A DNA stretch of 64,000 nucleotides. Origin: an uncultured Clostridia bacterium (GTDB lineage Bacteria; Bacillota; Clostridia; Christensenellales; UBA1242). The stretch spans positions 665 to 64,664 of the forward strand of contig CANQYX010000003.1 in NCBI GenBank assembly GCA_947628205.1. The letters run 5' to 3'. Shown here piece after piece: positions 1,955-54,062 of the stretch; within the stretch, counting starts at the first letter, position 1, and each line of letters starts with the position of its first letter. The notes below the pieces were generated by a model, which saw only the letters and a program-made list of their open reading frames with translations, had not been told where the DNA came from and ran no database searches. The position numbers and the translations under genes were made by a program.

Positions 1955-2692
1955 TTATTTTATTAAATTGTAAGTTTGTTTTATTAAATATTTTGCATAT
2001 TGCTCGTCTGTTTGTTTATTAAACCTAAACGCATATTGCGCGGCCGTCCATTGACGATTTGAAATATCGTAAGTGAGGTCATGCGGGTCACTTATCGTTT
2101 GCCTTTTGGCGTTTAAAACAACTTCAAGCGAATTAGATTTTGGCCAAACAGAAATTACGTTGTGATTTTTAGATTTTTTAAATACAATATAATTTTTTGT
2201 TTGCACAATTCTTAAATTTGGGTCTATTGATAAAGTTATGTTTTTAATTTTTTCAAACAGCTCGGCAACCAAAGTTCCGTCTGGAAACAATTCATCTTTT
2301 GAGTGGGCATATGTACGATTGTTTTTTTCTGGGTCTTTGAAAAACACATTTTTCTTGTTTTGCACCAATTTATCCAACCTGCCATGAATTTTTGCCATCG
2401 CTTCAAGAATATCGTAAGCATCCCAAGGTTCAATCTCAAAAAATTCTCTATTTGCGGTCAACCTCAATTCAGGATTCAATTTTTGGATTAGGGCATGAAA
2501 AGATTTATCCGCCATGCCGGTGGCAGGAACTTCATATGTTGCATAAACTTCAAACGGAGTTGGAACTGAAGTGTTATATAGTGTTCTTAACCTTTGCTGC
2601 AAATTTTCAGTGTAACCAATTTTAACGCAATTGGATTTGTGAAATGCCTCATTTGTTAAAATATAAATATAACCAACTTTTTCTTTTTCCAT
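1955..2692 (-). CDS. GIY-YIG superfamily / T5orf172 (MUG113-like) domain protein with a C-terminal DUF5655-like module
   Basis: N-terminus GYIYILTNEAF...VKIGYTENLQQRLRTLYNTSVPTPFEV fits the T5orf172/GIY-YIG pattern as I remember it. AGGAGG lies 4 nt upstream of the ATG at 2692. Confidence 0.6.
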   Translation of the reverse strand: MEKEKVGYIYILTNEAFHKSNCVKIGYTENLQQRLRTLYNTSVPTPFEVYATYEVPATGMADKSFHALIQKLNPELRLTANREFFEIEPWDAYDILEAMAKIHGRLDKLVQNKKNVFFKDPEKNNRTYAHSKDELFPDGTLVAELFEKIKNITLSIDPNLRIVQTKNYIVFKKSKNHNVISVWPKSNSLEVVLNAKRQTISDPHDLTYDISNRQWTAAQYAFRFNKQTDEQYAKYLIKQTYNLIK

Positions 2693-2716
2693 TTTTCCTC
2701 CTTAGAATTAACTACG

Positions 2717-5413
2717 TTATTTCTCATTTTTTCCACAACAGTTCTTATACTTCTTCCCACTTCCACATGGGCATAAATCGTTGCGGCCGATATGTGATGA
2801 GTTTGAGCGTGCGGCGGCTGGCTTATCTTTCCCATTTGTCTGCCCCATGGCAACTGGGCCGGTTGGGCGAGGCGCGATGCGAACTTCAACACGCATCCTA
2901 AACAGCGTGCAAGCCACCATTTCGCGCATGTCGCCAATCATTTTGTCGAACATGTCAAATCCTTCGTTTTTATATGCCACTATAGGGTCTTTTTGGCCGT
3001 ATGCTAAAATGCCAATTTCGTTGCGGAGAGTGTCCATCGCATCGATATGGTCGGTCCAGAACCTATCCACCAAACGAAGCAGCACATCGCGCTCGGCAAT
3101 GGCGAAATCAAAGCCAATTTTCTTAATTTCGGCAATTTTCTTTTCGTAACGATCTAAAATATTTTCAAAAATCAACTGGCTAGCGCCGGCAACGTCCTGC
3201 CCTTCAACAAATTCGGCGGTAACAAGATTTTCGCCACGCTCTAGCAATTTGTCCTCCAAGGCCTTATTTAGTGGCTCTAACTCCCACTCGTAACTTGGTT
3301 TTGTTTCGTCTAGGTAACTTGCGCAAAGGTCGAATACAAAATCTTTAATCATCTCCACAATTTGCGGATGAATATCTATGCCGTCAAGCACTTTGTCGCG
3401 CTCGCCATAAATGATTTGGCGTTGTTTGTTTAGCACATCGTCATATTGCAAAACGTGTTTGCGCGCATCGAAATTGGCGTTTTCCACCTTCTTTTGCGCG
3501 GTTTCAAAAAAGCGTGTTAAAATGCGTGATTGCAACGGCATATCCTCATTACCGCGGAAAGCAATTGAAAACCAACTTTTCATTCTGTCCTCGCCAAAAC
3601 GTTGAGGCAAATCGTCTTCAAGCGAAATGAAGAAAATACTGCTGCCGGGGTCGCCCTGACGCCCGGCACGGCCGCGCAACTGGTTATCAATACGCCTAGA
3701 TTCGTGCCTTTCAGTGCCTAAAATGTGCAAACCGCCAAGTTCGATAACCTTTTGCTTTTCCTCGTCAGTTATTGCTTTAAAATCTGCCAAATATTTATTA
3801 TATTTATCTTTAACTGCTTGTTCTTCCTCGCTAAGTTTGGTGTTGTATGAGGTTATTTTTTCAAGCATATCAGCCGTAACATTTTCATTGAGTAATTTTT
3901 GTTTTGCCAAAAATTCTGGGTTACCGCCCAGCAAGATATCCGTACCACGACCTGCCATGTTGGTGGCAATGGTAACCGCGCCAACGCGGCCGGATTGTGC
4001 CACAATTTGGCTTTCCAACTCGTGATTTTTAGCGTTTAAAAGGTTGTGCGGAATGCCAAGTTTTTTAATTTCTTTTGAAATGCGTTCACTCTTTTCAACC
4101 GAGGCAGTACCCACCAAAATTGGCTGCCCTTTTTCGTGTTTTTCTTTAATTTCCTCAACAATTGCCTTATATTTTGCATCCTCAGTGAAGAAAATCATAT
4201 CTTGCTCGTCTATACGCAAAACTGGCTTGTTGGTTGGAATGGTTACAACGTCCAGATTGTAAATTTTGTTAAATTCAGTTTCCTCAGTTTTGGCAGTACC
4301 TGTCATGCCGCTAAGTTTATCATACAACTTAAAATAGTTTTGCAGCGTGATGGTGGCAAGCGTTTTGTTTTCGTCCTTAATTTTAACGTGCTCTTTTGCC
4401 TCAATTGCTTGGTGCAAGCCATTAGAATAACGCCTGCCCGGCATAATGCGGCCGGTGAACTCGTCAACAATCAAAATTTCGTCATCCTTAACAATATAGT
4501 TAACATCGCGCTCCATAATATAGTTTGCACGCAACGCGTTGTTGATGTGATGGTTAAGCTCCAAATTTTCAATGTCCGAAAGGTTTTCAATTTTAAAGAA
4601 ATTTTCTGCCTTGCTAACGCCCGTTTCGGTCAGCCTAATTTGCTTGCGTTTAATGTCTATTTCATAATCCTCCGGCCTTAAAAAGCGCTTAACAAAATTA
4701 TCTGCCGCGCCATAAAGTTCGCTAATTTTGCCGCCCGCGCCCGAAATAATCAACGGTGTGCGTGCCTCATCAATTAAAATAGAGTCCACTTCGTCCACAA
4801 TGCAGAAATGATGGCCGCGCTGAACTTTATATCTTTTATCCACCTGCATGTTGTCGCGCAAATAGTCAAAGCCAAACTCGCTATTTGTGCCGTAAGTTAT
4901 GTCGCACTCATACGCGCGCTTTTTCTCCTCCGGGCTTTGCTGCGAAAGGGTTACACCAATTGTAAGCCCCAAAAATTTATACAACCTGCCCATCATTTCC
5001 GCTTGATAGGTTGCCAAATATTCGTTGACCGTTATAACATGCACATTGTTGCCAGTAAGCGCGTTCAAATACACCGCTGTGGTGGCGGTTAGGGTTTTAC
5101 CTTCACCCGTTTTCATTTCGGCAATTCTGCCCTGATGCAACACCACGCCGCCAATCAACTGCACGTGGAAATGCCTCTGCCCCAAAACGCGCGTGGAGGC
5201 CTCGCGCACCAACGCAAAAGCATCTGGCAAAATGTCATCCAACTTTTCGCCATTTGCTAACCTTTCCTTTAAAATTGGTGTTTGAGCCTGCAATTCGTCA
5301 TCACTCATTGCCGCATATTTATCCGCCAAAGCCTCAATTTTGGCAACAACTTTTTCAATTTTAATTAAACTACGTTTGTTGTCCGATGCAAATAGATAAG
5401 AAAATAATCCCAT
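2717..5413 (-). CDS. secA: Preprotein translocase ATPase SecA
   Basis: 898 aa. Walker A MKTGEGKTL, DEAD-like VDEVDSILIDEARTPLIISG, C-terminal zinc finger CPCGSGKKYKNCCG. GGAG Shine-Dalgarno upstream. Confidence 0.97.
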   Translation of the reverse strand: MGLFSYLFASDNKRSLIKIEKVVAKIEALADKYAAMSDDELQAQTPILKERLANGEKLDDILPDAFALVREASTRVLGQRHFHVQLIGGVVLHQGRIAEMKTGEGKTLTATTAVYLNALTGNNVHVITVNEYLATYQAEMMGRLYKFLGLTIGVTLSQQSPEEKKRAYECDITYGTNSEFGFDYLRDNMQVDKRYKVQRGHHFCIVDEVDSILIDEARTPLIISGAGGKISELYGAADNFVKRFLRPEDYEIDIKRKQIRLTETGVSKAENFFKIENLSDIENLELNHHINNALRANYIMERDVNYIVKDDEILIVDEFTGRIMPGRRYSNGLHQAIEAKEHVKIKDENKTLATITLQNYFKLYDKLSGMTGTAKTEETEFNKIYNLDVVTIPTNKPVLRIDEQDMIFFTEDAKYKAIVEEIKEKHEKGQPILVGTASVEKSERISKEIKKLGIPHNLLNAKNHELESQIVAQSGRVGAVTIATNMAGRGTDILLGGNPEFLAKQKLLNENVTADMLEKITSYNTKLSEEEQAVKDKYNKYLADFKAITDEEKQKVIELGGLHILGTERHESRRIDNQLRGRAGRQGDPGSSIFFISLEDDLPQRFGEDRMKSWFSIAFRGNEDMPLQSRILTRFFETAQKKVENANFDARKHVLQYDDVLNKQRQIIYGERDKVLDGIDIHPQIVEMIKDFVFDLCASYLDETKPSYEWELEPLNKALEDKLLERGENLVTAEFVEGQDVAGASQLIFENILDRYEKKIAEIKKIGFDFAIAERDVLLRLVDRFWTDHIDAMDTLRNEIGILAYGQKDPIVAYKNEGFDMFDKMIGDMREMVACTLFRMRVEVRIAPRPTGPVAMGQTNGKDKPAAARSNSSHIGRNDLCPCGSGKKYKNCCGKNEK

Positions 5414-5452
5414 AAAATCTCCTAATTAAATGATATTTCATGTTGACCCAGC

Positions 5453-5579
5453 TGTCATACCGACCAAGTTAGCAAGGCGAACGCGTAGAGTGTATCTCAT
5501 CCTCATGTCATACCGAGCGAAACAAATGGCGAGATACACTCCACGCGTGAAACTGACATTTCACTTGGTCGGTATGACA
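5453..5579. repeat. Long imperfect inverted repeat (127 nt, two-tier hairpin) built from GTCATACCGA boxes
   Basis: Outer arms TGTCATACCGACCAAGT (5453-5469) and ACTTGGTCGGTATGACA (5563-5579) form a perfect 17 bp stem. Inner arms ACGCGTAGAGTGTATCTC / GAGATACACTCCACGCGT pair at 17 of 18 positions. The loop carries another GTCATACCGAGCGAAAC box. Confidence 0.8.
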
Positions 5580-5656
5580 ACCGCCATTTGTGCAGTCGAG
5601 TGTATCTCTCGGCCCTGCAAGAACTTTGTTCGCAGTGGAGTAATGGCAAAGAATCT

Positions 5657-5735
5657 AGATGTTTCGACTCCACTTCGTTTCGCTCAACATGACATTTTGT
5701 CATTCTGAGCGAGTGAAACGAGTCGAAGAATCTCT
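5657..5735. repeat. Second imperfect inverted repeat of the same box family
   Basis: Left arm ...GTTTCGACTCCACTTCGTTTCGCTCAACATGAC is the approximate reverse complement of right arm GTCATTCTGAGCGAGTGAAACGAGTCGAAGAATCT. The arms are separated by about 7 nt. Confidence 0.7.
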
Positions 5736-5739
5736 CAAT

Positions 5740-5841
5740 GTCATTGCTAGCTCCTATGTCATTCTGAGCTCCTATGTCATTCTGAGCACCTATGATGTCA
5801 TTGCGAGCTCCTATGTCATTCTGAGCGTAGCGAAGAATCTC
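5740..5841. repeat. Tandem 18-21 nt repeats (TCCTATGTCATTCTGAGC) ending in GTCATTCTGAGCGTAGCGAAGAATCTC
   Basis: Units at 5752-5769, 5770-5787, 5788-5808 (21-nt variant) and 5809-5826. They are preceded by GTCATTGCTAGC and have no spacers between them. Confidence 0.85.
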
Positions 5842-5950
5842 AACACAAAATATCATTACAATACTTAACTTGTATATTTTAGCATATTAAAAAAAATTTG
5901 TCTAGCAATTTAAGCCAAACAAATTTTTAACCAAAATTTAGACAAAATTT

Positions 5951-7906
5951 TTATTTTTTGTACACAGTGTAATCTTTCCCATTAATACTTTCAGTTGTAA
6001 TAGTTGGGAAATTGGTTTTGTTAATATATGCATGCCCATTTTCTGCGTAGTCATCAGGGTCAGTTGGGATAAGGCTGGTCAACACCCTAATCGTTTTGGC
6101 ATAATTTAATAATTCTTCACACGCCGATCTACTTGTTGCTTCGGTGTAAACATATTCGCTTTCAATTGTAACTTCTGTCAATTTGCTACAACTATTGAAT
6201 GCTCGAAACCCTATATTTGTTACACTGCTAGGAATTGTTACACTTGTTAATCCGCTACATAAAGAAAATGCATAATTTCTTATGTTTGTTACTCCTTGTT
6301 CAATGGTTAAGCCACCATTAAATCCACTGCATTTCTGGAATGCACGATAACCAATAAATGATACACTGCCTGGGATGACCAAATTTCCTGTAAATCCGCT
6401 ACAATTCTCGAATGCACCGTCCCCTATACTTGCTACTCCTTGTGGGATAATTAAGTTTCCGTTAAATCCGCCGCAATTATAGAATGCATTGCTCCCAATA
6501 CTTGTTACACCGCTTGGGATTGTTAAATTTCCTGTAAATCCGCTGCAATCCTCGAATGTTTTATCCCCTATACTTGTTACTCCTTGTGGGATAGTTAAGT
6601 TTCCGTTAAATCCACTACACCCGTCGAATGCACACTTCCCTATACTTTCTACACCGCTTGGGATGGTTAAATCCCCTGTTAATCCGCTACAACTCTGGAA
6701 TGCACCTTCCCCTATATTTGTTACACCGCTTGGGATGGTTATGCTTGTTAATCCTGTGCAGTAAAAGAATGCACTGTTCCCTATATTTATTACACCGCTT
6801 GGGATGGTTATGCTGGTTAATCCTGTGCAGTAAAAGAATGCATTGTTCCCTATATTTATTACACCGCTTGGGATGGTTATGCTGGTTAATCCTGTGCAGA
6901 AATAGAATCCAAGCTTTCCTATGCTTGTACCACCTGTTATTATTACATTTGTTAGTGTTGTGGGTAGGCTAGAATTTTGACTAGTATCTGAAGTTGCGCC
7001 AAAAATATAGCCAAAACATGTTTGGGGGGTTTTTGTTGCCTCTTTAGTTGCCCCAACAAATGGAATAGAAATATATTTTAAGCTTGTGCAATTTTTGTTT
7101 AGCGCGCCTTGCTCTATTTCGGTTACACTATCAGGAATTGTTATTTCGATTAATGTGGATTGGTCTATAATAGCATTTTTTGCAATTTTTGTAATAGGAG
7201 TGCCATCTATTTCAGATGGGATGTGAAGCACAGATAAGTTATTGTTTTTAAGTTTGGTTATTGTGCCTGCGCCATCAAACTCTAAGTCAGATGAATAATC
7301 TTTTCCGTCTAGGTTAAATTGGAATAAACCTGAGTATTTAGCATCACTTGCTATATCCCTAATTTTGGCTAGGATATACACATATTTTGTTTTGTTAGCT
7401 GAGATTGTGGTGGTTGTCCAATCGCCAAAATGAGTGTTAATATTTTCATTGAATTCTGAAGCTATTTCTTCATCCGAATTTAAACAAAATACCGAAATGT
7501 TTGTGTCCTCTATTTCATTATCTTGATAGAATAAATCTATTGCATAATCTTTACCGCCAGAATTGGTGAACTTATATTCAAACACAACATAATCGTTTTC
7601 TGCTGTTAGTTGAATATCCTTATCTGTTGGGCTAAGTGATGCGTTTTGATTGGCTTCAAGGCCAAAAGTAAGTTTGGTAGCACCATTTGCTTCGCCACCC
7701 GTGGTCATATTATGCCACTCTTCACTGCCAACTTTCCAGCGTGCGGTTGCCTCACCACTAACTTCCATGCTGATGTAACGCACCCTTATGGAACTTGTTA
7801 ATTCTCGCCTTGTCGCTGCAAATACGGCAACAACGGCAACGACAGATAAAAACGCTAAGACAGTTGCCAAACTTATGGTTAATAAAATTTTCTTATTTGG
7901 GCTCAT
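5951..7906 (-). CDS. Cell-surface BspA-type leucine-rich-repeat (LRR_5-like) protein with an N-terminal hydrophobic anchor or signal
   Basis: 651 aa. N-terminus ILLTISLATVLAFLSVVAVVAVFA. About a dozen 23-aa repeats of the form C.GL..I.IP..V..IG..AF..C. AAGGAG lies 5 nt upstream of the ATG at 7906. Confidence 0.85.
   Translation of the reverse strand: MSPNKKILLTISLATVLAFLSVVAVVAVFAATRRELTSSIRVRYISMEVSGEATARWKVGSEEWHNMTTGGEANGATKLTFGLEANQNASLSPTDKDIQLTAENDYVVFEYKFTNSGGKDYAIDLFYQDNEIEDTNISVFCLNSDEEIASEFNENINTHFGDWTTTTISANKTKYVYILAKIRDIASDAKYSGLFQFNLDGKDYSSDLEFDGAGTITKLKNNNLSVLHIPSEIDGTPITKIAKNAIIDQSTLIEITIPDSVTEIEQGALNKNCTSLKYISIPFVGATKEATKTPQTCFGYIFGATSDTSQNSSLPTTLTNVIITGGTSIGKLGFYFCTGLTSITIPSGVINIGNNAFFYCTGLTSITIPSGVINIGNSAFFYCTGLTSITIPSGVTNIGEGAFQSCSGLTGDLTIPSGVESIGKCAFDGCSGFNGNLTIPQGVTSIGDKTFEDCSGFTGNLTIPSGVTSIGSNAFYNCGGFNGNLIIPQGVASIGDGAFENCSGFTGNLVIPGSVSFIGYRAFQKCSGFNGGLTIEQGVTNIRNYAFSLCSGLTSVTIPSSVTNIGFRAFNSCSKLTEVTIESEYVYTEATSRSACEELLNYAKTIRVLTSLIPTDPDDYAENGHAYINKTNFPTITTESINGKDYTVYKK
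6721..6899. repeat. 2.6 near-identical tandem copies of a 69-bp (23-codon) LRR unit inside the LRR gene
   Basis: TTACACCGCTTGGGATGG... recurs at 6721, 6790 and 6859, exactly 69 nt apart, with only a few substitutions. Confidence 0.9.
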
Positions 7907-7995
7907 AATTTCTCCTTTTAAATTAATCTAGGCATTCAATTGTGATTATTATTTTTTATGTAAATAATTTTCCCACATTTTTGCCCTATATATTC

Positions 7996-8026
7996 ATGTT
8001 AGCACGTTGCCCCCCCCCCCTGTCAA
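7996..8026 (-). promoter_or_regulatory. Promoter of the LRR gene with a homopolymeric G11 spacer
   Basis: The minus strand reads TTGACA (8026-8021), G11 + CAACGTGC (19-nt spacer), TAACAT (8001-7996), with TG giving an extended -10 TGcTAACAT. No other promoter-like element lies between it and the ATG at 7906. Confidence 0.6.
8010..8020. repeat. Homopolymeric tract, C11 on the plus strand (G11 on the coding-side strand)
   Basis: Read directly: gttgc cccccccccc tgtcaa. Eleven consecutive C. Confidence 0.98.
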
Positions 8027-8112
8027 GCGATTTTATGCTATTTTTTAAAATTTTTTAAAAAAATTTTTAAAAATTTTAGCCAACAACTTAATTTTGGCTG
8101 GTTTTGGGCAAC

Positions 8113-8138
8113 AAAAAAAAGCAACTATTGTGCTTTTT
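8113..8138 (-). terminator. Rho-independent terminator after recR
   Basis: The minus strand reads AAAAAGCA-caatagt-TGCTTTTTTTT, just 3' of the recR stop at 8147. Confidence 0.65.
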
Positions 8139-10657: not shown

Positions 10658-11257
10658 TTAAATCTCACCTTTTATGCTGTGCAATTTGCGTTTTATGGCT
10701 TGCAGGGTGTTGTCCACCTGCTTGGTTGTTACATCCAGCATTTCCGCCATCTGCGAATAACTCAGCCCGTTTAAAAACATTTTTAACATATTAAATTGTT
10801 GCTCGGTTAAAAGGTTTTTAACCTTACTTATAACAATTGCTGTTAGTTCTTTGTCTATATACTCTTTTTCAATATCACTATTATCGTCAACAATAACCAA
10901 CTTAAAACTTTTGTTGCCATCGTCGCCCACTCCGCCATAATAATTTATTGGAAGATAGCTGTTTAGTGGGGCGTTTTTTATTCTATTTGCATTTTTAACC
11001 GCATTCTGCAACTGCCTGTGTATGCAAAGCGAGGCAAAGGCACTAAAATTGTGGTTTTTGGTTTTGTCGTAAACCATAATGGCCTTATACAAGCCAATCA
11101 TCCCTTCCTGAATTAAATCATCATCATCGGCACCAATCAAAAAATATTCGCGCGAAATTGCAATTACTTTTGGCTTGAACATGCGCAGCAAATTCTCCAT
11201 CGCTTGCTCGTTTTGTTTTTGTGCCTCTTCAATTAAAGTTAGCACTTCATCTTGCAC
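10658..11257 (-). CDS. sigH: Sigma-70 family sigma factor, SigH-like
   Basis: Region 2 DDLIQEGMIGLYKAI and region 4 HTH LSYSQMAEMLDVTTKQVDNTLQAIKRKL. mrnC-rlmB-sigH order as in Bacillus. I start it at GTG 11257, preceded by AAGGAGG. The ORF-track start at 11284 is a TTG with no Shine-Dalgarno. The start is uncertain. Confidence 0.75.
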   Translation of the reverse strand: MQDEVLTLIEEAQKQNEQAMENLLRMFKPKVIAISREYFLIGADDDDLIQEGMIGLYKAIMVYDKTKNHNFSAFASLCIHRQLQNAVKNANRIKNAPLNSYLPINYYGGVGDDGNKSFKLVIVDDNSDIEKEYIDKELTAIVISKVKNLLTEQQFNMLKMFLNGLSYSQMAEMLDVTTKQVDNTLQAIKRKLHSIKGEI

Positions 11258-11290
11258 AAATCCTCCTTTTCTTTGGTTAAACAAAGTTGT

Positions 11291-19635: not shown

Positions 19636-19640
19636 ATTAA

Positions 19641-19770
19641 CACCATATAGAGTGTGCGAGGGGCAAGCCTGATAACCACACAGCAACCTGCAATTAAGGT
19701 AAGGTGCTAATGCTTGATGGATGGTGTAATTTAAAATTTGTGCCATCCGTTGATGGCTATTTTTATTTTT
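19641..19770 (+). promoter_or_regulatory. Candidate transcription-terminating riboswitch, SAM-I clan (SAM-I/IV-like) core
   Basis: P1 CACCAU (19641-46) / AUGGUG (19721-26). P2 GUGUG (19652-56) / CACAC (19677-81). Conserved-looking strings GAGUG, GCAACC (19683-88) and AGGUGCUAA (19702-10). Terminator GCCAUC-cguu-GAUGGC (19742-57) plus a U-rich tail. The P1 3' strand GGAUGG can alternatively pair with CCAUCC as an anti-terminator. P3 is short, so the class assignment is tentative. Confidence 0.5.
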
Positions 19771-19781
19771 AGGAGGGAAAA

Positions 19782-20108
19782 ATGGAAGGGGACATTCGCG
19801 GAATTATGAATGTTTATTATGAAGATTACAACAGCGCAAACAAAGGCAATTATTCTAAACCATATTGTGTAAATTGCAAAACCTACAATTCTTCGCTAGA
19901 TTTTTTAAAATATTTAGAAGATTTGGGCTTTTTGGTTGTTGCTGGCCAGGCTCAGGGCTTCTGTGCTGTGCTTGTAAACCTTGAATTAAAGCGTTGCTCA
20001 GGCATACGATTAGCCTGCCATTACACAACGCCTGAAAAAGAATTGGATTACAACGATTTTAAACCTATTTTAGACAAATATTTAAAAAATCAAAATGTAA
20101 ATTTATAA
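19782..20108 (+). CDS. Hypothetical 108-aa protein downstream of the riboswitch candidate
   Basis: AGGAGG 6 nt upstream of the ATG. Contains CVNC and other Cys residues. No family recognised. Confidence 0.6.
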   Translation: MEGDIRGIMNVYYEDYNSANKGNYSKPYCVNCKTYNSSLDFLKYLEDLGFLVVAGQAQGFCAVLVNLELKRCSGIRLACHYTTPEKELDYNDFKPILDKYLKNQNVNL

Positions 20109-20537: not shown

Positions 20538-23480
20538 TTAATCATTAACATGATTTATCCACGCACCGTTATACACTTTTAGCGAATTTGCACCATCGCT
20601 AGCTGTTAAAATATCTGGCGTGCGGCCAATTTGAGAATTGTTTGCAAGCCATCTTGATTGCGCTGCATCAACAAAGGTTGCAGAAACCAAATTGCATCCA
20701 TTAAACGCCAACGCGCCTATATAGCGCAAGGAAGAAGGAAGAGTTATATTTTTTAATGCTGTGCGCCCATCAAAAGCTTTTGAACAAATGACACGTGTGC
20801 CATCTAATATAGTGTAAGTTTCGTAATTAAAATCAGCATTTGTTGCAATTAAATAATGCGTAGAATTATCTTTTGAGTGCAAATATAAAATTCCGTTATA
20901 TGTTTCGCTTTGATTAGATTTCCAGTTTTCATCATCTAAATAGAACTTTGTGCCAAAGAAAGCGTTGTCACCAATAAAATTAATTTTGTTGCCAACTTTA
21001 ATTGTTGCAAGGTTTGAACACCCATTAAACGCATTTGCGCCTATGCTGGTTACACTGTCTGGCAATGTTACAGAAACAAGGTTTGTATCGTCTCTAAATG
21101 TGCCGGCAGGAATTGAACTAAAGGTGTAATCCGACAAATCTAAATTGGTGTTAGGTTGTTCTGTTTTGTCTGTAATATGGAAACTAACCCCTTCTTTAAG
21201 CGGGCTGGCTTCATCGTTCATAAAATTAATTGCAAGCCACTCTTTAACCGTGCCAGTAAACTCAACTTTTTTCAACGCTGGGCAATTTTTAAACGCATCG
21301 TTGAAAACTTCTTTTATTGTATTAACTAATTTAACCTCAATTAAATTTGTGCAGTTTTCAAAAGCTGATTCTGCAATTCCAACCGTATTTTCTTTAACCG
21401 AGAAAGTTGCAACGCTTTCGTCAACTTTTAACAAATGATTAGCAAGATACAACGCGGTTGAGTTATCTACCCAATTTGATTTATCCAAAACATAATCGGT
21501 GTTTTTAAAAGCGAATGGTCCAACATAGTCAATTTCACCACAGGTTATTGAGCTAAGATTAATGCAATTGCCAAATGCGTATGTCTCCACCCTTTTAATA
21601 CTTTCGGACAAGGTTACGCTTGTTAAATTTTTGATGTCCATAAAAGCATACTCTCTGATTGTGGTAATGCTTGTGCCTTGAATAATTAAGGTTTGAACAC
21701 CGGCATCGTGAGTTGAAAAGGCATAACGGTTAATTTCTTTAACAGGTTTTCCGTTGTAGCTGCCAGAAATGATTATCTTTTTAGAATTTGAACATTGACC
21801 AAAAGCTTTACGATAAGTAGTAAGCCCATTGTATTGAACTTTTTCGCCCAATACGTAATAACTATCTGGGCTGTCAGCATCTCCAATTAAAGTATATTTT
21901 AAGCCATCTGCCTGACACTTTGAACATATATTGGACTCAACAAAATCGTGCGCTTCAATTAATTTTTCCGAGCAATCTTCGTTTTGACATTCTTTATAAC
22001 ACTTTGTATCGTCCTCGGCAACAGGTTTCCAAGCCGACCAGAAATGTTCGTTTTTATCCAGTTCAACAATTTTTTCATAATCGCAGTACGCTTCTTCGCA
22101 ATATGTTTTTATGTAACCCTTTTCCCTACAGGTTGGATCTTTACTTTCTTGTTTAAAAGTGTGTTTATATTTATCTTCTTCTCCGCAAACAGTGCAGGTT
22201 TTAAAATGATTTTCGTCATCCTTTTGCCAGTTTTCGCCCCACTTATGCCCTTCATGATTCAAAGTTTCGTAAGATTTTTGATTTTTGCAAACACGACATC
22301 TAACAATTTTGTATCCATCAACTAAGCATGTTGCATTTTGTTGTTCAATTTCAGTGTTGTCGCATGCCTCAATCAATTCATCGCCGCAACTGCTGCAAAC
22401 TTTTTTATGTTTGCCCTCTAAATAAGAATCATCCGTGCCGTCATATTGCCAATCTTGATAACTGTGGCCGAAATGTTCGGTTTCGTCTGTTTTGTAACTA
22501 AATCCACAATCTTTGCATTTATGCTCAACATAACCATCGATTGTGCACGTTGCATTTACAACATGAATTTCAAAATGACAATTGCTTTCTTCAACGTGTG
22601 TAGGGTCATTTTTGCAAACTCTACGATGACGATTGTTGGTTGGGTCGTTATCGTAATCTTCAATCGGTTCGTAAGGCGAACTTTCATAATCGTGACCGGT
22701 TGCATCGTGGAAATCGCTGTCTTGATAGTTATCGCAATGTTCGCACCATTTTCTTGTGTAACCGGAGCTTTCGCAACCAGCTTCCACAATTTGAGTGTCG
22801 CGATTAAACACGCACGCTTCCTTGTTTTCTAAATCGAGAGCCTCACATTTGGCGCATTGTTTTGCGTGGAAATCTGTGCCCTCCAACCTAACATAAACAT
22901 CATTAAATTGATGCGGTTTAATTGGGTCGATTACATCCACTTCGTGGTTGCAGGCATCGCATTTAAAACGAACATACCCTTCCGAAGTGCATGTTGCTAA
23001 TTTATGGTCAATTTCATGATAAACGCATGGCTCAATTTTAACATCAGATTCGTCGTTGCGGCAATAGCAACTATGCTGATCGTTATTGTGATTACCATCG
23101 CTATCTTCAACATGTTTCCAATCGGTATAATCATGCCCGAGCGCAGGGATTACATGGTGAGTTTCTTGTTCAGAACATCTTGTGCATATTCTATCCTCAA
23201 GGCCTTCCTCTTCACAACTGGCAGGTTTAGTAACATGTTCCTCCCACTCGTGCCCCAGCGCGTTTAAAACAATTGTAACACTATGCCCGCACGAACACTC
23301 GCCAAGTTGCGTGCCAGTTTCAGTGCAAGTTGGATTTTGCGTTATAATATAGCTATAAACATGCTCATGTTGCACAGAATTATCATCTCCGCATGCGGAC
23401 AAAACCGAGCCAACGCCCAAAATGCATGCAAAGAATAAAATTGCAACAAAAATTTTGTTAAATTTATGTAAATTTTTCAT
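20538..23480 (-). CDS. Surface lipoprotein: Cys-rich repeat modules plus C-terminal BspA-type LRR region
   Basis: Start set at ATG 23480 (GGAGG upstream). Signal and lipobox MKNLHKFNKIFVAILFFACILGVGSVLSAC. About 9-10 modules of the form TC..(E/D)G.....C..C...(10-15)...GH. The C-terminal half has IP..V..IG..AF..C LRR units. Confidence 0.8.
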   Translation of the reverse strand: MKNLHKFNKIFVAILFFACILGVGSVLSACGDDNSVQHEHVYSYIITQNPTCTETGTQLGECSCGHSVTIVLNALGHEWEEHVTKPASCEEEGLEDRICTRCSEQETHHVIPALGHDYTDWKHVEDSDGNHNNDQHSCYCRNDESDVKIEPCVYHEIDHKLATCTSEGYVRFKCDACNHEVDVIDPIKPHQFNDVYVRLEGTDFHAKQCAKCEALDLENKEACVFNRDTQIVEAGCESSGYTRKWCEHCDNYQDSDFHDATGHDYESSPYEPIEDYDNDPTNNRHRRVCKNDPTHVEESNCHFEIHVVNATCTIDGYVEHKCKDCGFSYKTDETEHFGHSYQDWQYDGTDDSYLEGKHKKVCSSCGDELIEACDNTEIEQQNATCLVDGYKIVRCRVCKNQKSYETLNHEGHKWGENWQKDDENHFKTCTVCGEEDKYKHTFKQESKDPTCREKGYIKTYCEEAYCDYEKIVELDKNEHFWSAWKPVAEDDTKCYKECQNEDCSEKLIEAHDFVESNICSKCQADGLKYTLIGDADSPDSYYVLGEKVQYNGLTTYRKAFGQCSNSKKIIISGSYNGKPVKEINRYAFSTHDAGVQTLIIQGTSITTIREYAFMDIKNLTSVTLSESIKRVETYAFGNCINLSSITCGEIDYVGPFAFKNTDYVLDKSNWVDNSTALYLANHLLKVDESVATFSVKENTVGIAESAFENCTNLIEVKLVNTIKEVFNDAFKNCPALKKVEFTGTVKEWLAINFMNDEASPLKEGVSFHITDKTEQPNTNLDLSDYTFSSIPAGTFRDDTNLVSVTLPDSVTSIGANAFNGCSNLATIKVGNKINFIGDNAFFGTKFYLDDENWKSNQSETYNGILYLHSKDNSTHYLIATNADFNYETYTILDGTRVICSKAFDGRTALKNITLPSSLRYIGALAFNGCNLVSATFVDAAQSRWLANNSQIGRTPDILTASDGANSLKVYNGAWINHVND

Positions 23481-26719: not shown

Positions 26720-26748
26720 TTGACAATATTTCTGCGTTTTGTTATAAT
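26720..26748 (+). promoter_or_regulatory. Consensus promoter of the acyltransferase gene; -10 ends 6 nt before ATG (leaderless-type)
   Basis: TTGACA (26720-25), 17 nt, TGtTATAAT (-10 at 26743-48), GCTTTT, ATG at 26755. No Shine-Dalgarno. Confidence 0.7.
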
Positions 26749-26754
26749 GCTTTT

Positions 26755-27996
26755 ATGGAAAACAAACAAACACGAAGTTCTAATATTGAATTATTAAGAA
26801 TTTTTGCCATGCTACTTGTTGTTATGTCACATTGGGGTTGGGCTTTCCTTGACGTGACATTCACTAATAGTTTCAACTATTATTTTTATCGCCTTTTTAG
26901 AGCGTTTGGTCAACTTGGCGTGATTTTATTTATTTTAATTTCTAGCTATTTTTTATCTAAAAGCAAATTTAAAATTTCGTCAATGTTAAAACTAATTTTG
27001 CAAACCATCCTCTCAATTCTCTTTCTGTTTTTAACCTTTTACATATTAGGTAAATTCGGCGTTGTGTGCCAGGGGGGGGGGTACTATAATTTTTCGGAAT
27101 TTATAACAAATTTATTGATTTTTAATTCGGAATATTGGTTTATAAACATTTATTTAGTTATCTATTTAATTTTCCCATTCCTTAACCTAATAATTAACAA
27201 CTGCTCAAAAAAACAATTTATTTGGTTGATATTAATTCTTTTTATCTGTTTTTCTCTTTTACCAACTTTAACGAAAAATCAAATTACAGAAAATTCCATT
27301 GTCAACAATTTTGGTTGGTACATACTAATATATTTTTTGGGTGCATATTTAAGAAGATTCCCTGATGATTTCAAAATTAACAAACTGCTATTTTTTGGTT
27401 TAATCGGTTGCATTGTTATCTTTATTAACGATATTGATTTTTATCAAACAAGGTCAAACCCATGCATGATTTTAATGGCTATAATTATTTTCTTACTATT
27501 TAGCAAATTAAAAATGAAAAATTTTAGGTTTATCAACGTGGTTGCATCGTCAACTTTTGGTGTGTATTTATTGCACGAAAATCGTTATACACGATTTTTC
27601 GTTTGGAAGGACATTTTTAAATTGCACACCATATCAAACAAATGGTTCTTCCCGTTATATTCAATTTTTTCAGTTGTTGTGGTTTTTGCTATTTGCAGCA
27701 TTATAAGTTTGATTATGCAATATGTGTTAATTAATCCGTTAATAAAACTTTTAAACAAGCCATTATCTAAAATTCCCGTTGCCAAAATTTTTCCAGAAAC
27801 AAAAATTGAAAAAACTAATGATAAGCCAACAGCTATAATGCCTATAAGCATATTAATTTTAATTTCAGTTTTCTTATCCAATGTTATTTATCAATTTACA
27901 AATAAATTAACACCTTTAATATATTTTATTTTTATAGGAGCAGCTTTTTGCTTGCTAATATTAATAATAAAAAAACTATTAAAAAAAAGAGTGTAA
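26755..27996 (+). CDS. Acyltransferase family 3 (O-acyl/acetyltransferase) integral membrane protein
   Basis: 413 aa, about 10 TM segments. N-terminal SSNIELLRIFAMLLVVMSHW is typical of acyltransferase_3. Confidence 0.8.
   Translation: MENKQTRSSNIELLRIFAMLLVVMSHWGWAFLDVTFTNSFNYYFYRLFRAFGQLGVILFILISSYFLSKSKFKISSMLKLILQTILSILFLFLTFYILGKFGVVCQGGGYYNFSEFITNLLIFNSEYWFINIYLVIYLIFPFLNLIINNCSKKQFIWLILILFICFSLLPTLTKNQITENSIVNNFGWYILIYFLGAYLRRFPDDFKINKLLFFGLIGCIVIFINDIDFYQTRSNPCMILMAIIIFLLFSKLKMKNFRFINVVASSTFGVYLLHENRYTRFFVWKDIFKLHTISNKWFFPLYSIFSVVVVFAICSIISLIMQYVLINPLIKLLNKPLSKIPVAKIFPETKIEKTNDKPTAIMPISILILISVFLSNVIYQFTNKLTPLIYFIFIGAAFCLLILIIKKLLKKRV
27072..27081 (+). repeat. Homopolymeric G10 tract inside the acyltransferase CDS
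   Basis: Read directly: c aggggggggg g tac. Decodes in frame as CAG GGG GGG GGG TAC (Q-G-G-G-Y, codons 106-110). Confidence 0.98.
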
Positions 27997-42835: not shown

Positions 42836-42863
42836 ATTTTATCATAAATTTTAAATTTGTCAA
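42836..42863 (-). promoter_or_regulatory. queH promoter; -10 ends 7 nt before ATG (leaderless-type); -35 overlaps the stop codon of the giant gene
   Basis: TTGACA (42863-58), 16 nt, TGaTAAAAT (-10 at 42841-36), AAATTTT, ATG at 42828. The TGA of the 3702-codon ORF is at 42862-42860. Confidence 0.6.
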
Positions 42864-45800
42864 GCCAAAATAAATTTATAAGTTATATTGTTGTTATCGT
42901 TAAGTTTAAAGTTTACTTCAACATAGTTATCCACAAATTCAACCAGCAAAATTTGGTCGGCATCCTTAAAATGTGCCTCATTTTTTGTTGTTATTTCGCT
43001 AACGTTTGGAATAAACGAGTAATTAAATTCAACGCCCAAACTATCGCTAACATCTTCTAGCAAATAAAGTTTACACTCTTGGGCTGACTGTACAGTTGTT
43101 TTAAATTTAACTTCGTTAGATTTTTCAAGGTCTTCGCCGAACTCAACTGTGTAGAGTTTCAACTCGACAATTTGTTCGTTTGTTAAAATGCACATTTGAG
43201 TTGTGTAGCTATCTCGCGCCCAACTGTCTAGCGAACCTAAATTTGCGCCCACAACGTACATAACATATGTGCCAGAAATGCCAGAAATTGTGTTAATAAC
43301 GTTTGCAAATGGTGTGTTGTATTTTATGCCTTCTGGCAGATTTGCATTTGCCACCATGCCCACAGTGTCAATGTCGAAATCGCCATTAAAGGTTATTTGT
43401 TTATTTGCTGCATCGTAGCCATATTTTGAAACAATTTGTTCGTTGTTATATTTCGTGTTCAACTCAAAATTTGCTTGAATTGTGCCAACTGCAAGCCCCA
43501 ACACTTTGCGATACAAAATTGCATCAATCAAACTTGGCCTGCCTGCGCGATATGAATAGAACGAACTTAAATTTTCTAGCCAATAATTTAAACTATCAAT
43601 CGACAGGCTAACATTGTCAATGTATTGAATTTCTGCCTCGTCAAAATATTTTACATCGTTAGGAACAACATAATCGCTTGCGCAAGCATAATTCAACGAG
43701 CCAATTGCCGAAGATGGCATTGTAAACACATCTTTATCTAAAATTGTGCCAACAACGCCGCCCGTATATAGCCCAAGCAGTTTGCCAGAGAATTTTGAAT
43801 TTTTAATATATCCATTAACGCTTCTGCCAACAAGTCCGCCCACAGTTGTGTTAACCACGTTGGAAACATTAACAATATTAAGTTCGGCCGAACAATTTGT
43901 AATTAATCCACCAAGATTTAGGCCAACCAACCCTGCGCAAACGCGCGAATTGCCAAAGATATTTTCCACCTCATTTGCAACTGTAATGCTGCTATCTGCA
44001 ATTATACCGCGATTTTCGCCAATCAAGCCAGCCGCATAATATTGCCCCACAATATTGCAATTTTCAATTTGAACATTGCAGTTGGAAATTTTAACCCTTT
44101 CCCCAACAAAGCCAAACAACGTGCCAACAATGTCGCCTATAACCGTTAGGTTTGAATTAACAGTTATATTTTTAACATTCATATACATATTGTTCAAATA
44201 TCTGGTGTCGTTTATGTTGTAACTTGAATTTAAATATCCATCTAAAATTCCTACCACGCTTCCTGCATAATGGACATCTGATAGGTTGTAATTTATATCA
44301 AAATTATTGTTGCGTGACATGTAGATTGAATAACTAGAACCCGATTTGCTTTCCGCGTTAACATTTGCGCTTGACGTAATGCCATCCAAATCAAAGTTGC
44401 CGCGAACAATACCTGCCAAACCACCAACCGCATTAGAGCCAATTAAAACATTATCTTGCGAAGAAACTTCTATATTGTAAATTTTATAATTTTCAATTAT
44501 GCCAGCCAAAATGCCCACCGCTTGGGTGTGAGATGCGGTAAACCTTGTTGTGTTCAATCTTAAATTTGCCACAACAGGTTGCACTGTGATATCCGAAGTT
44601 GCAACAAGCTCTTTAAACAGGCCTATTGAATTGAGGTTGTTAGACGAAGAAATCATAATATTATCAATAAGCATATTGTTGCCTTGAAGGTTGCCGCTAA
44701 ATGTTCTTGTGCTGGTTGAAGGGTTGTCAATAACCGAACTAAAGTCAAGGTCGGTAACCAATCTAAAGTATTTTGAAGTGTTGTCGGATAAATAGTAATC
44801 CCATGTTGCAATGTTATATAAAATTATTGGATTTGTGCTTGTTCCATACCCGTTATCCAAAAGGACATAATGATATGTGGTTATAATTTGATTGTCCACT
44901 TCAACTTTCGATTCTTCCCTACGGATTGTTCTCAACCCGTAGAACATTGATTCGGTGGATTGACGAACTGTGTCCACCCTCACTTTGTTTTCAACCGATG
45001 TTAAGTGAGGCAATTCTCCGTTCAAAATCTGCCAACTGCCAGTTTCGTTATCCCCAAACATAAATTTGTTATAGGACGATTGTAAAAATCTGTTTTGCAC
45101 TGACACATAATCCACGCCTTCCACCTTATGATTTCTTAAATATTGGTCTTCCCCATAAGGCAAAGAGGAAAGGTCTATAATTTCATAAGAATTTGTTATG
45201 CCGGATGATATGTTGTCGTTCTTAGTTGTAAATTGTGTGCAAGCGGCACGGCTTGAAATAATGCCTTTATTAACATAGGTATAGCACAAATTGATTGTTC
45301 CTGAATTTGTGTCTACAAAACCGGCAAAATTGCTGTTAGTGCCAAACACGGCGTAATTGGTGTAGCAATTGAAAATATTGCCTCGATTAGAGTAAACAAA
45401 CCCACCAACTCTTCCATTTTGCGCAGTTATGTTACTGCTTTGTTGATCTCCCGACAAAGCGCGCCCACCAGCAAGCACATTGCACATTGAAATTTCATTA
45501 ATGTTGGAGTTAAGCCCATCTCCGCCATTAAACACCACAAGTCCGCCAACATACACGGTTGCGCTTGTTTCGTAGGCAAAAATAAATCCGCTGTCGTTTA
45601 TATTAATATGTTCTATGCCATTGCTGTTTTTTGTGCTGTAGAACACTTCTCTATCATTTAAGAAGAAATTTTCATTTTCGGCAAGATAAGAGCAAGAAAC
45701 AATTTTGCCACCATTTGTGTGCACCAAGCCCCCAATATTTGCTCTGCCCACCATTGCCAGCGAGGAATCGCTATGGGTAATATACCCTTGATTTGTGCAA

Positions 45801-48800
45801 ACAAGGCCGCCCATGTTGAAATTTGCTGTGCGTTGGTTTTCAATTGCCGAAACGCGCAAAGCAACGCTGCCACGTACTTGACAATTGGTTATAATGCCCT
45901 CATTTTCCGGTGTGATGCCACCAAAAGAGGCCGATCTATATTCAATTTGGTCGTTAGCACACAAATCTTTAAATATGGAAGAACTTGGGTTCTGTGCGTC
46001 AATTCTGCCAAGAGAATATTCATCGTTAGAAAAGTATATTACTTCCAGGTTAGAAACAACCATGTTTGCATAAATTCTTCTAAACAGGCCTATATATATG
46101 TTGCCATTTTCCGTGTTATCGAACGGAGCAAAACTTTTAATTATAATTTTTCTGCCATTTCCGTCAAACGAAGCGATGTTTACATCTATTGGCACATAAT
46201 TTTCAAGCACCAAATCGTTGCCCAAAATATAGTTCCTTTCTGGAAGGCTAACCATGTTGATAAAATCTTCTTCATCTTTAACAACTTCTGGCTCTAAAAA
46301 CGATGTGGAATTTGCAAAATTTAAAACATATTTATAATTGAATTGCAATTCTGTTTCGCTTTCACTAAATGGCTTAATTTCCCACAAACCATCATCATTT
46401 AACGCCAAGTTAAATTGAAGTTGAAGAACAAGGTTGTTATCATCGTTAGAGTTAACAAGCAAATGAACTTTATGATTCATATCATCAAAAGTCAAGGTCG
46501 CAATTGAACTATCCGTTAACAAATTAAATTTGCCATCTACCATTTTTCCAAGTGAAAGATATTCAAGGGTGTTAATTTCACCCAAAATTGTGTGAATCGA
46601 TTTTAATTGGTCGCTAGCATTGCCTGTTAAAACATTTGGGTTATAAATATATTGACTATCCCAATAAGTGCCATTAGTTTCTAAATAACTTATATCAAAA
46701 TTATTTAAATAGAAATTCAAAACTGTTGGCACGCCAAAATCGCCATTTAAAACACGCTTAGTTTCGCTTTCGGTTTGCCCAAAATTTACTTGGCTATTGT
46801 TAACGCTGACATTATGAATTACATATTGCACAATTTTAAACTGCAAACTTGTTGTTGCGTTTTCAAATGTGCCATCATTTAATGTTAATGTTGTGGTGGC
46901 GGTTAAAGTGAACATCTTGTTTAGCAAATCTTCGCTATATCTGCCCACCAAAACATAATTAGAATTGTTGGTTTGTATTTCAAAATAGTTGTTAAAATCT
47001 AATTCCTGCCCATCAAAACTTCCGCTAAAAATTACATTGCCATTAGAGTTGCGCGTTGTAACAGCCAAATTTGCAGGAACGCCATTTGCTAAATACAAAA
47101 TTCCGCTTGCATTGTCATAATGCACCCCTTGTGGGTTAACATATTCCATTTCAATTTCAGGAAGCATTTTAATATCTATAACAATGCTGTTTGAAGTTAT
47201 TAAATTGCCAAATTTATCGTAAGCAGAAACGCGAACTGTGTGAAGTTTAGAACTTGCGCGAATGTCGATTAGAGTTGAAACATAAGTTGCCCTTTGATTA
47301 GGAATTTTGTTTAATCTTATGCCCTTGCCGTTTGATGTTTCAACATCCATTGTTTCCAACGGCTTGCCATTAATGCCGTCAATTTGTGTAAATATTATAT
47401 TTTCATTGCCCGATTCGTTCAAATCTTCAATTTCCAAATAGCCATAATAACTATTTGCAGGCGAAAGGTTAATTATAATCAATCCGCCACCAACTGGGCG
47501 CAACATATCGCTTGGCTCAATAACAGCAACCCCGTTGTCTGTTTGAACGTGGCCATCTTCATCATATTTATAGATATAATTATTTATTTCGATGTTATCT
47601 ATGCGCTGCGGAACTAAAATAAACGAAATGCTTTCGCCATCATATCCATTTGGCAGTTCAAAGAAAATGGTTAGTTCGGTTTCGTCTTGAACTTCAAGCT
47701 TTTCGTTGAATTTAACCAAATATTTAACAATTTGTTGGTTATTGTCAAAGTTGTTGGCTTTATATTCGATGAACTGTGCAATATCTTCAACATATCTGCC
47801 ATCAAAAATTATGCCATTAACAAGATTTAATGTTTCAAGCTCCTCTTCGCTAAACGGTAAATCGGTTGTAACATAAGCATAAACATCGGCCGTGCCATTA
47901 GGATAAATTATTATCTGGGTGCTGCTTAACTTAATTTCGGTTGGGCCTTGATATGTGTTAAGGTTGAAATTAAAGGTTTGGTCATCTTCGCCAGATTTTT
48001 CAAAAATATCATAACTTGTGCCGCCATAATTTATCTTTGTAAATCGCTTAATTGCAAATTGCAGCACTCTATCTTGCAAATGATTTTTAACCGATATGCT
48101 AAACGCGGTAAGTGGGTCTAACACAACTTTTAATTCAGTTGCCGAATCTACAACTGGCTGAACACCGCTTATTGAAATGTATTTGCCAATTGTGCCTTCA
48201 ATTTGTAAGCCATCCTTTATTGTAACATCAACCTCTAAATAAAGGTCGCTTGTGGTTTTATATTCATAGTCCACACCCAAATAATTTAAACTATTTGAAG
48301 CGACTGAATAATATTCTTTTGTTTTGCCCTTAGCAATTTGTTGCGTGGTGTTTAAAATTGAAGATTTTTCATCTGCCTTACTAGTGCTTAAAACAAAATT
48401 TTCGCCAACCGGTGCAGAAATTATAACATCAACCACGCACCTAACATTATGGTTGAGCGCAGAATAGAACGTAAGTTTGCATTCGCCCAAGCCATTAACC
48501 AACAAATAGTTGCCAGAAACGGATAGAATTGCGCTATCGCTTTCCGCAATAATGCGTATTGTGCCCAAAATGGTTGGTTCAACATCTATGTTGATTAAGT
48601 CCTTTTCGTTATCGTTTGACAATATTCTATATCTATTAAATTTATTGTTAAGTGTGGTTAAAGTGTTTTGATAATTTTCGTTGGTTGAATCTAAAACAAA
48701 ATCGTAATAATATAAGCGCATTAAATATGGTGCATCATCTAAAATTGGGTTTATAACGGTTGAATCAATTTTTGTTGGGCTTTGTTCAAAAATAGGGTTT

Positions 48801-54033: not shown

Positions 54034-54062
54034 ATTATAAATAAATTGTAGAATATTGTCAA
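54034..54062 (-). promoter_or_regulatory. Consensus promoter of the giant gene
   Basis: TTGACA (54062-57), 17 nt, TATAAT (54039-34). The leader is about 60 nt. Confidence 0.7.

Follow-up and report, generated by a model that had tools for sequence, protein, structure and literature searches.

Within the window, the 64-kb stretch of DNA from an uncultured Clostridia bacterium that was analysed here as a whole, a BspA-type LRR protein, predicted to be membrane-anchored and surface-exposed, is probably driven by a SigA-type promoter that carries a hypermutable run of 11 G's (G11) in the spacer between its -35 and -10 hexamers. In the proposed mechanism, slipped-strand mispairing during replication would add or remove G's, and promoter strength would be expected to peak at G9 (17-nt spacer), to be intermediate at G10 (18 nt), and to be weak or OFF at G11 (19 nt, the assembled state). 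The population would then be a reversible mix of cells with and without the displayed LRR surface protein, and a frameshift switch based on a G10 tract in an acyltransferase gene 19 kb away would act in parallel. This phase-switch reading is plausible and partly supported, having been considerably strengthened by the comparative evidence from related and other genomes.

The candidate promoter and its gene

On the minus strand, the candidate promoter reads TTGACA (8026-8021), G11 (8020-8010), CAACGTGC (8009-8002), and TAACAT (8001-7996), or, with its flanks, ...AAAATCGC-TTGACA-GGGGGGGGGGG-CAACGTGC-TAACAT-GAATATA..., and it sits 90 nt upstream of the gene encoding the 651-aa LRR_5 protein. Both hexamers of a housekeeping sigma factor, TTGACA and TGnTAACAT, are thus recognisable upstream of this gene. 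The G tract lies wholly between them and accounts for 11 of the 19 spacer nucleotides, so that the -10 is 19 nt away from the -35 as assembled and would be 18 nt away with G10 and 17 nt away with G9. The parts of the promoter and the gene that follows are:

8027..8075, minus strand: A/T-tract block (UP-element-like) ending in AAAATCGC, directly 5' of the -35; kept almost base for base in L274 and L210
8021..8026, minus strand: -35 hexamer TTGACA; TTGAC is invariant in three homologous promoters (window, L274, L210)
8010..8020, minus strand: G11 homopolymer (plus strand: C11), directly adjoining the -35; proposed mutable element
8002..8009, minus strand: remaining spacer CAACGTGC, with an extended -10 TG at 8004-8003 (-15/-14)
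7996..8001, minus strand: -10 hexamer TAACAT, a 4/6 match with A2 and T6 kept
7907..7989, minus strand: predicted 5' leader; the TSS is placed near 7989 from the position of the -10; RBS AAGGAGA at 7917-7911
5951..7906, minus strand: gene of the 651-aa protein, ATG at 7906; predicted N-terminal signal anchor, ~170-aa domain, and BspA-type LRR_5 repeats

On re-reading the window, we found the sequence, the coordinates, the 19-nt spacer, the G11, and the extended -10 TG given in a preliminary description of this DNA to be correct. The same description had called this element the only promoter-like one upstream of the gene, which is slightly overstated given that a consensus scan returned a weak TTAAAA-17-TAAAAT match (9/12) at 8058..8030 inside the A/T block; its identification of TTGACA as a real -35 is backed by the homologous promoters described below. 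The consensus scanner accepts spacers of 16-18 nt only and therefore cannot list TTGACA-19-TAACAT.

In order to see which spacing is used elsewhere in the window, we listed every TTGACA together with its best downstream -10. Seven other intergenic TTGACA hexamers were found (20248, 26702, 26720, 30722, 36054, 38531, and 54062), each with a spacer of exactly 17 nt before a TATAAT or TAAAAT, and two of these promoters precede tRNA genes. Because all seven use 17 nt, the 19 nt of the LRR promoter is an outlier and G9 would restore the usual spacing. Nevertheless, the -10 is only a 4/6 match and the TG might loosen the dependence on -35 spacing, in which case the G11 state might not be OFF.

The leader RNA matched no Rfam family and has no significant structure (z=-0.89), on which grounds a riboswitch or another leader RNA was rejected. 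A promoter for an ECF sigma factor was also considered, as an ECF-like sigma gene lies at 10658-11284, and was discarded since no GAAC-type -35 paired at ECF spacing with a CGT-type -10 was seen on inspection. Elsewhere in the window, at 19640-19727 on the plus strand, a SAM (S-box) riboswitch (47.5 bits) precedes a 108-aa ORF (19782-20108) that is not recognisable as a methionine or SAM gene.

The 651-aa protein matches LRR_5 of Pfam with E=4.8e-69 and 230.6 bits, compared with a gathering cut-off of 27.7, whereas its ~170-aa N-terminal domain is without a Pfam match. The hydrophobic N-terminal segment ILLTISLATVLAFLSVVAVVAVFAA, the predicted anchor, is visible in the protein and is kept in its homologues; a wall-anchor motif was not found in the 651 residues. 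The family defined by the N-terminal domain includes P0035 (56-64% identity), P0003 (32-35%), and P0020 (26%). The contig encoding P0035, the 56%-identical homologue, begins 88 nt upstream of the ATG and so leaves the promoter outside. When species-representative genomes were searched, the LRR N-terminus as a single query gave no match and an alignment of the N-terminal domain gave one locus, L210, from a sister species. This locus contains four tandem paralogues of 222, 202, 203, and 205 aa (2501-5345). The first paralogue, small and anchored, is a homologue of the N-terminal domain of the window LRR protein; the tandem array suggests a variable surface-protein family in the lineage.

Two further large genes of the window may be mentioned here. 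A second BspA-type LRR_5 gene (~20538-23480, minus strand) codes for a lipoprotein, with the signal ...LSAC, in which numerous Cys-rich repeats of ~40 aa precede the LRRs; the promoter of the gene is an ordinary TTGACT-17-TAAAAT without a homopolymer. A giant ORF of 3702 aa (42860-53968, minus strand) gave no Pfam match at E<=1e-5 and is preceded by a TTGACA-17-TATAAT promoter at 54062.

Homologous promoters and the history of the locus

DNA upstream of the gene could be recovered for three homologues, with the following promoters:

L210 (same MAG as L006, RecR 88% identical, sister species): AAAAATCGCTTGACT-AATTTTTTTTTAATTTA-TAAAAT; spacer of 17 nt containing T9
L274 (encodes P0003, another metagenome): AAAATCGCTTGACG-CG-CCCCCCCCCC-TAAGTGA-TATACT; spacer of 19 nt containing C10, with TG
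L275 (encodes P0020): TTGACT-17-TAAAAT; no tract

In both L210 and L274, the gene behind the promoter encodes a homologue of the N-terminal domain. Over the A/T block and AAAATCGCTTGAC, these two promoters and that of the window align near-perfectly, and all three diverge exactly at the spacer. Because the three align up to TTGAC and diverge only in the spacer that follows, TTGAC is, judged by this alignment, the -35 of a conserved promoter family. The comparison also shows homopolymers of changing base identity, which appear to have taken up the spacer of this family repeatedly.

The gene order in the window is dnaX-ybaB-recR-[LRR gene]-[repeat-rich segment]-secA. The closest relatives by RecR, 92-77% identical, are MAGs from rabbit, ruminant, and chicken gut that are labelled uncultured Clostridia or Candidatus Onthoplasma, the latter belonging to the Christensenellaceae, order Christensenellales, in the NCBI taxonomy. 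In the sister species L004, secA directly follows recR. Neither L006 nor L007 has an LRR homologue in the recR-secA interval, and none was found there in any relative examined. Both edges of the inserted DNA can be recognised:

8113..8138, minus strand: terminator-like hairpin of recR, AAAAAGCA-CAATAGT-TGCTTTTT plus a T run, then conserved GTTGCCC; upstream edge of the inserted cassette
5876..5904, minus strand: secA promoter TAGACA-17-TAAAAT with TG at 5884-5883, conserved; downstream edge of the inserted cassette

The hairpin and GTTGCCC are also present 3' of recR in L004, and the form 'TGCTAGACAAATTTTTT...TGCTA(A/T)(A/T)AT' of the secA promoter is also found 5' of secA in L004 and L006. 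Since both flanks are recognisable and the LRR gene is missing from the recR-secA interval in relatives, the gene arrived as a cassette of ~2.2 kb with its own A/T-rich block and TTGACA-G11 promoter. The stem of the recR hairpin is weak and was missed by a terminator scan; read-through from recR could consequently bring transcription that is independent of the tract.

Between the secA promoter and the secA start, the 117-aa 'ORF' at 5503-5856 is probably no gene and belongs to a repeat-rich insert (5429-5857). This insert contains six TGTCATTCTGAGC-like units and several inverted repeats of 17-23 nt; with an 18-nt inverted repeat (5429-5446 / 5840-5857) at its two ends, it has a MITE-like look. 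Similar repeats occur 3' of an LRR homologue in L088 (~1925-2078) and 5' of surface-protein genes in L210 (~2200-2260).

Long G tracts in the window and in other genomes

The window has a G+C content of 34.8%, and its G/C runs fall off steeply with length: 14174 runs of length 1, 3030 of 2, 539 of 3, 82 of 4, 10 of 5, one of 6, none of 7-9, and one each of 10 and 11. The sole runs longer than 6 are therefore C11/G11 at 8010-8020 and G10 at 27072-27081. A first-order Markov simulation predicts 0.01 runs of at least 10 nt in 64 kb, compared with the 2 observed, and in ~600 kb of loci centred on recR, taken from 80 related genomes, there are just two G/C runs of 7 or more, both of them G9 and coding. 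Given the Markov expectation and the near absence of such runs from related loci, both tracts are far beyond chance and are not accidents of composition. This spectrum and the simulation agree with the preliminary description, which had named the run at 27072-27081 as the sole companion of G11 and had argued against chance. That description had also placed the companion at a surface-related gene; the run lies in an Acyl_transf_3 ORF, and the tract is a coding one and not a promoter tract.

The two G9 runs of the related loci (L054 3246-3254 and L065 3546-3554), in two different Clostridia species, encode a conserved Gly-Gly-Gly (HN.(V/I)GGGIL). The gene lies near dnaX and has, by eye, an HD-like LGLLHD(V/I)GY motif, making this a coding homopolymer that is conserved across species.

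The companion tract is located as follows:

27072..27081, plus strand: G10 tract inside the Acyl_transf_3 ORF 26755-27996, in frame, codons 106-109, encoding Q-G-G-G-Y

The Q-G-G-G-Y loop is absent from, or not conserved in, homologues of the acyltransferase. A tract of G9 or G11 would end the protein at 116 or 111 aa, respectively, and the gene is served by a strong promoter of its own, TTGACA-17-TATAAT at 26720. G10 was intact in three other assemblies, where the look-up finds exact, in-frame products only. Translational contingency genes classically have this arrangement, and the gene of this membrane acyltransferase is likely a translational phase-variable surface-modification gene.

We then scanned other genomes for the layout of the LRR promoter. 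A first scan, of one genome per species, used TTGACA-G9+-N7-12-TANNNT and yielded at least 118 stretches; a second used CGCTTGACA-G8+ and yielded 70 stretches. Altogether, more than 100 TTGACA-G(8-21) sites were found in species-representative genomes, 49 of them in Bacillota among the matches listed. For measures of enrichment, 84 sites in 80 loci among the matches listed were set against control positions drawn at random from those loci. An exact TATAAT follows 19% of these 84 listed sites and 3.3% of the controls, and TG is present at -15/-14 in 37% of them as opposed to 7% of control positions. A hydrophobic N-terminus is encoded by 32 of the 54 ORFs (59%) downstream of the listed sites, compared with 19% of other ORFs.

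Spacer length among the 49 listed Bacillota sites ranges over 15-21 nt, and lengths of 17, 19, and 20 nt account for 10 sites each. Among the genes downstream of these listed sites are LRR_5 genes in L104, L162, and L187, a gene for a DUF285/LRR_5 pilin-like protein in L149, and others for lipoproteins and a Listeria-Bacteroides-repeat protein; at the site in L184, the downstream gene is homologous to the N-terminal domain of the window protein (hmmsearch E=5e-17). A G17 site in L137, from a Coriobacteriales (Actinomycetota) MAG, is followed by a gene for a CWB2 wall-binding protein. Two MAGs related to the source organism also carry such sites, L207 (same MAG as L009, RecR 81%) and L198 (same MAG as L013, RecR 80%).

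Within one MAG, paralogous promoters can have the same flanks and differ in the number of G's alone:

CAKOLD01: G11, G13, and G14
CANQAT01: G11 (spacer 17) and G13 (spacer 19)
CAKQXG01: G11 and G12
L099: G13 and G15

The layout is also present in the genomes of two isolates, Anaerocaecibacter muris CLA-AA-M11 (G14, 431x; NZ_CALPCE010000011.1, ~10987-11017) and Eubacteriales bacterium KG125 (G10, complete genome CP171222; ~516746 of CP171222.1). From these matches, poly-G that abuts the -35 is common in gut Bacillota upstream of surface proteins, close relatives included, and the window is not unique in this respect.

Three of the sites have features of their own. In L104, from a Firmicutes MAG, a leader of ~390 nt (3506-3897) separates the TTGACA-G14 promoter from the LRR_5 gene and carries a ~115-nt element (GCGAGGCTAA(A/C)C...TTAGGTTGGTTTT...AAAGCGGAAAGCAATTTGCTTTG) twice in direct orientation. 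In L235, from a rabbit-gut Clostridia MAG (minus strand, oriented 7818 and 7903), CTTGACAAA(C/T)GCTTGACA-G9-TAATTGGTAAAAT occurs twice in tandem, 85 nt apart. In L260 (position 1789), from the Clostridia MAG CAZTBU01, CGCTTGACA is followed by G21, in addition to two G14 promoters.

We consider the chances about even that the window promoter is one case of a broad, undescribed system in which homopolymers directly after the -35, common and repeatedly evolved, stochastically control surface proteins. The tracts of such a system may be mostly poly-G, with C10 and T9 in the homologous promoters, and its proteins may be BspA-type LRR, pilin-like, lipoprotein, and wall-binding ones. The lineages involved may include Christensenellales-like Clostridia, low-GC MAGs labelled 'uncultured Bacilli' or 'Tenericutes', Kiritimatiellae, and gut Alphaproteobacteria. 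Phase variation in these lineages has so far been ascribed mainly to DNA inversion.

Tract length, rival explanations, and known systems

Copies of the locus were sought by exact-protein look-ups, which returned three contigs for RecR, four for YbaB, two for 'orf117', and none for the LRR protein or SecA; the species was found in a handful of contigs of 2-3x coverage from one ENA study and one Logan run. The source study comprises the assemblies ERZ27249068, ERZ27249285, ERZ27249300, and ERZ27249295 and the run ERR10663737. L003 was the only recovered contig that spans the tract, and it carries G11 and matches the window letter for letter over the intergenic region and the promoter. The tract was accordingly G11 in 2 of 2 spanning assemblies (window and L003) and no length polymorphism was seen at the locus, the length of an 11-nt homopolymer from a short-read assembly being one that may be off by one. 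No copy turned up in JGI metagenomes, whether these were scanned with the leader or with the promoter at variable G length.

Two other contigs, L001 and L002 (3x coverage), stop inside the tract, after 4 and 8 G's, and the assemblies of the same samples as L001-L003, three in all, do run through the coding G10. The breaks are suggestive, although low coverage and problems with the reading or trimming of poly-G explain them equally well.

L003 differs from the window at one place within the LRR gene. In this contig (sample ERZ27249285), 49 nt of the coding region for the signal anchor are missing at 1888-1889 (window 7828-7876), and TTTG direct repeats flank the gap; the aligned region is otherwise identical. 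The gap would frameshift the LRR gene and, at 2.4x coverage, is either a real knockout variant or an assembly error.

The identity of G11 in two independent assemblies and the presence of the TGn extended -10 would also fit a static weak promoter, in which the tract is effectively stable, 19 nt together with the extended -10 gives constitutive low expression, and the homopolymer is a neutral remnant of the cassette. We regard this explanation as unlikely, though deserving of serious consideration. A neutral 11-mer is very improbable where the G10 is the only other G/C run longer than 6 in 64 kb and such runs are nearly absent from the ~600 kb of relatives. In addition, other homopolymers are found at the same place in the homologous promoters, and the paralogous poly-G promoters elsewhere differ in tract length alone.

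Transcription could instead originate from the upstream TTAAAA-17-TAAAAT match or from recR through read-through, which would leave the tract in the 5' leader to act, if at all, on the RNA. The upstream match does score 9/12 and no strong recR terminator was called, but matches of this kind are expected in a block made of A/T only, and its TAAAAT becomes AAAAAT in L210 whereas TTGAC is invariant in all three aligned promoters. The homologous genes of L210 and L275 have a clean TTGACT-17-TAAAAT at the corresponding place, and the leader is without significant structure. With this evidence, a start elsewhere seems improbable.

Poly-G is a known artefact of Illumina sequencing, and two contigs (L001 and L002) end in G's, so an error of sequencing or assembly, e.g. 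from two-colour chemistry, was also weighed and found very improbable. The tract is internal with unique sequence on both sides and is the same in the assembly of a second sample, a 413-aa ORF stays in frame across the companion G10 in each of four assemblies, and the layout also occurs in high-coverage isolate genomes (Anaerocaecibacter muris at 431x; complete CP171222). An invertible promoter, the usual phase-variation device of gut commensals and here favoured by the gene class alone, was rejected as hardly credible because only low-complexity A/T palindromes and no other inverted repeats flank the promoter and no recombinase gene is adjacent, the neighbours being recR, ybaB, dnaX, and secA.

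The proposed slippage of the G11 spacer has several counterparts among known systems. In the vlp genes of Mycoplasma hyorhinis, poly-A lies in the -35/-10 spacer and several paralogous promoters have different tract lengths. The vlp genes resemble the window in belonging to a Bacillota-related lineage and in having a spacer homopolymer upstream of surface proteins, and they differ in the poly-A tract, the lipoproteins they encode, and their Mollicute host. According to PMC7864442, porA of N. meningitidis has poly-G between -35 and -10 and is best expressed at 17 nt. Like the window promoter, it is a surface-protein promoter of the sigma-70 type whose spacer holds the whole G homopolymer, but porA encodes an outer-membrane porin of a Gram-negative pathogen whereas the window gene encodes an LRR_5 protein of Christensenellales-like Clostridia; moreover, the window tract abuts the -35 and an extended -10 is present. 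Similarly, tp0126 of T. pallidum, an OmpW homologue, has poly-G between -35 and -10 with an optimum of 17 nt and a length that varies within isolates (PMC7864442); it shares poly-G in the spacer with the window, and its host is a spirochaete. Other tracts of T. pallidum, in tpr genes, are located at or near the -10 or the TSS and act differently (PMC7864442). We also considered whether an A-form shortening of poly-G could make 19 nt optimal, which is unlikely since the optimum of porA and tp0126 is 17 nt despite poly-G (PMC7864442).

Closer in protein class are the BspA-like proteins of Candidatus Mycoplasma girerdii, for which repeat-mediated phase variation was detected from metagenomic reads (PMC5476646); however, these genes use dinucleotide repeats in the coding region (translational frameshift) and no promoter-spacer homopolymer (PMC5476646). 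In Streptococcus pyogenes M28, an intergenic T-tract of 9-11 nt at Spy1336/R28 alters the transcript level of a surface adhesin (PMC7098570). This organism also belongs to the Bacillota, but the tract is poly-T between divergent genes, with Spy1337 as regulator, and a spacer effect is not clear (PMC7098570). Our searches of the open-access literature found no description of a promoter-spacer poly-G switch in Clostridia or other gut Firmicutes commensals, in line with the earlier statement that no Clostridia example had been described. The kind of switch proposed here would thus be a known one (porA / tp0126), in a lineage and a gene family that appear to be without an earlier report.

Gut MAGs probably contain many such switches, the window promoter among them. 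Tracts of this type break low-coverage assemblies, and a consensus length represents the majority state only. The isolates that carry the layout (A. muris CLA-AA-M11 and KG125) make the idea testable in culture strains. If the tract slips, a largely uncultured branch of gut Clostridia would vary its surface by the contingency-locus logic of mucosal pathogens, and what varies would be an LRR adhesin-like protein and probably also an O-acyl modification. Such variation would bear on how strains evade host antibody or phage, and on whether the presence of a gene in a MAG may be read as its expression.
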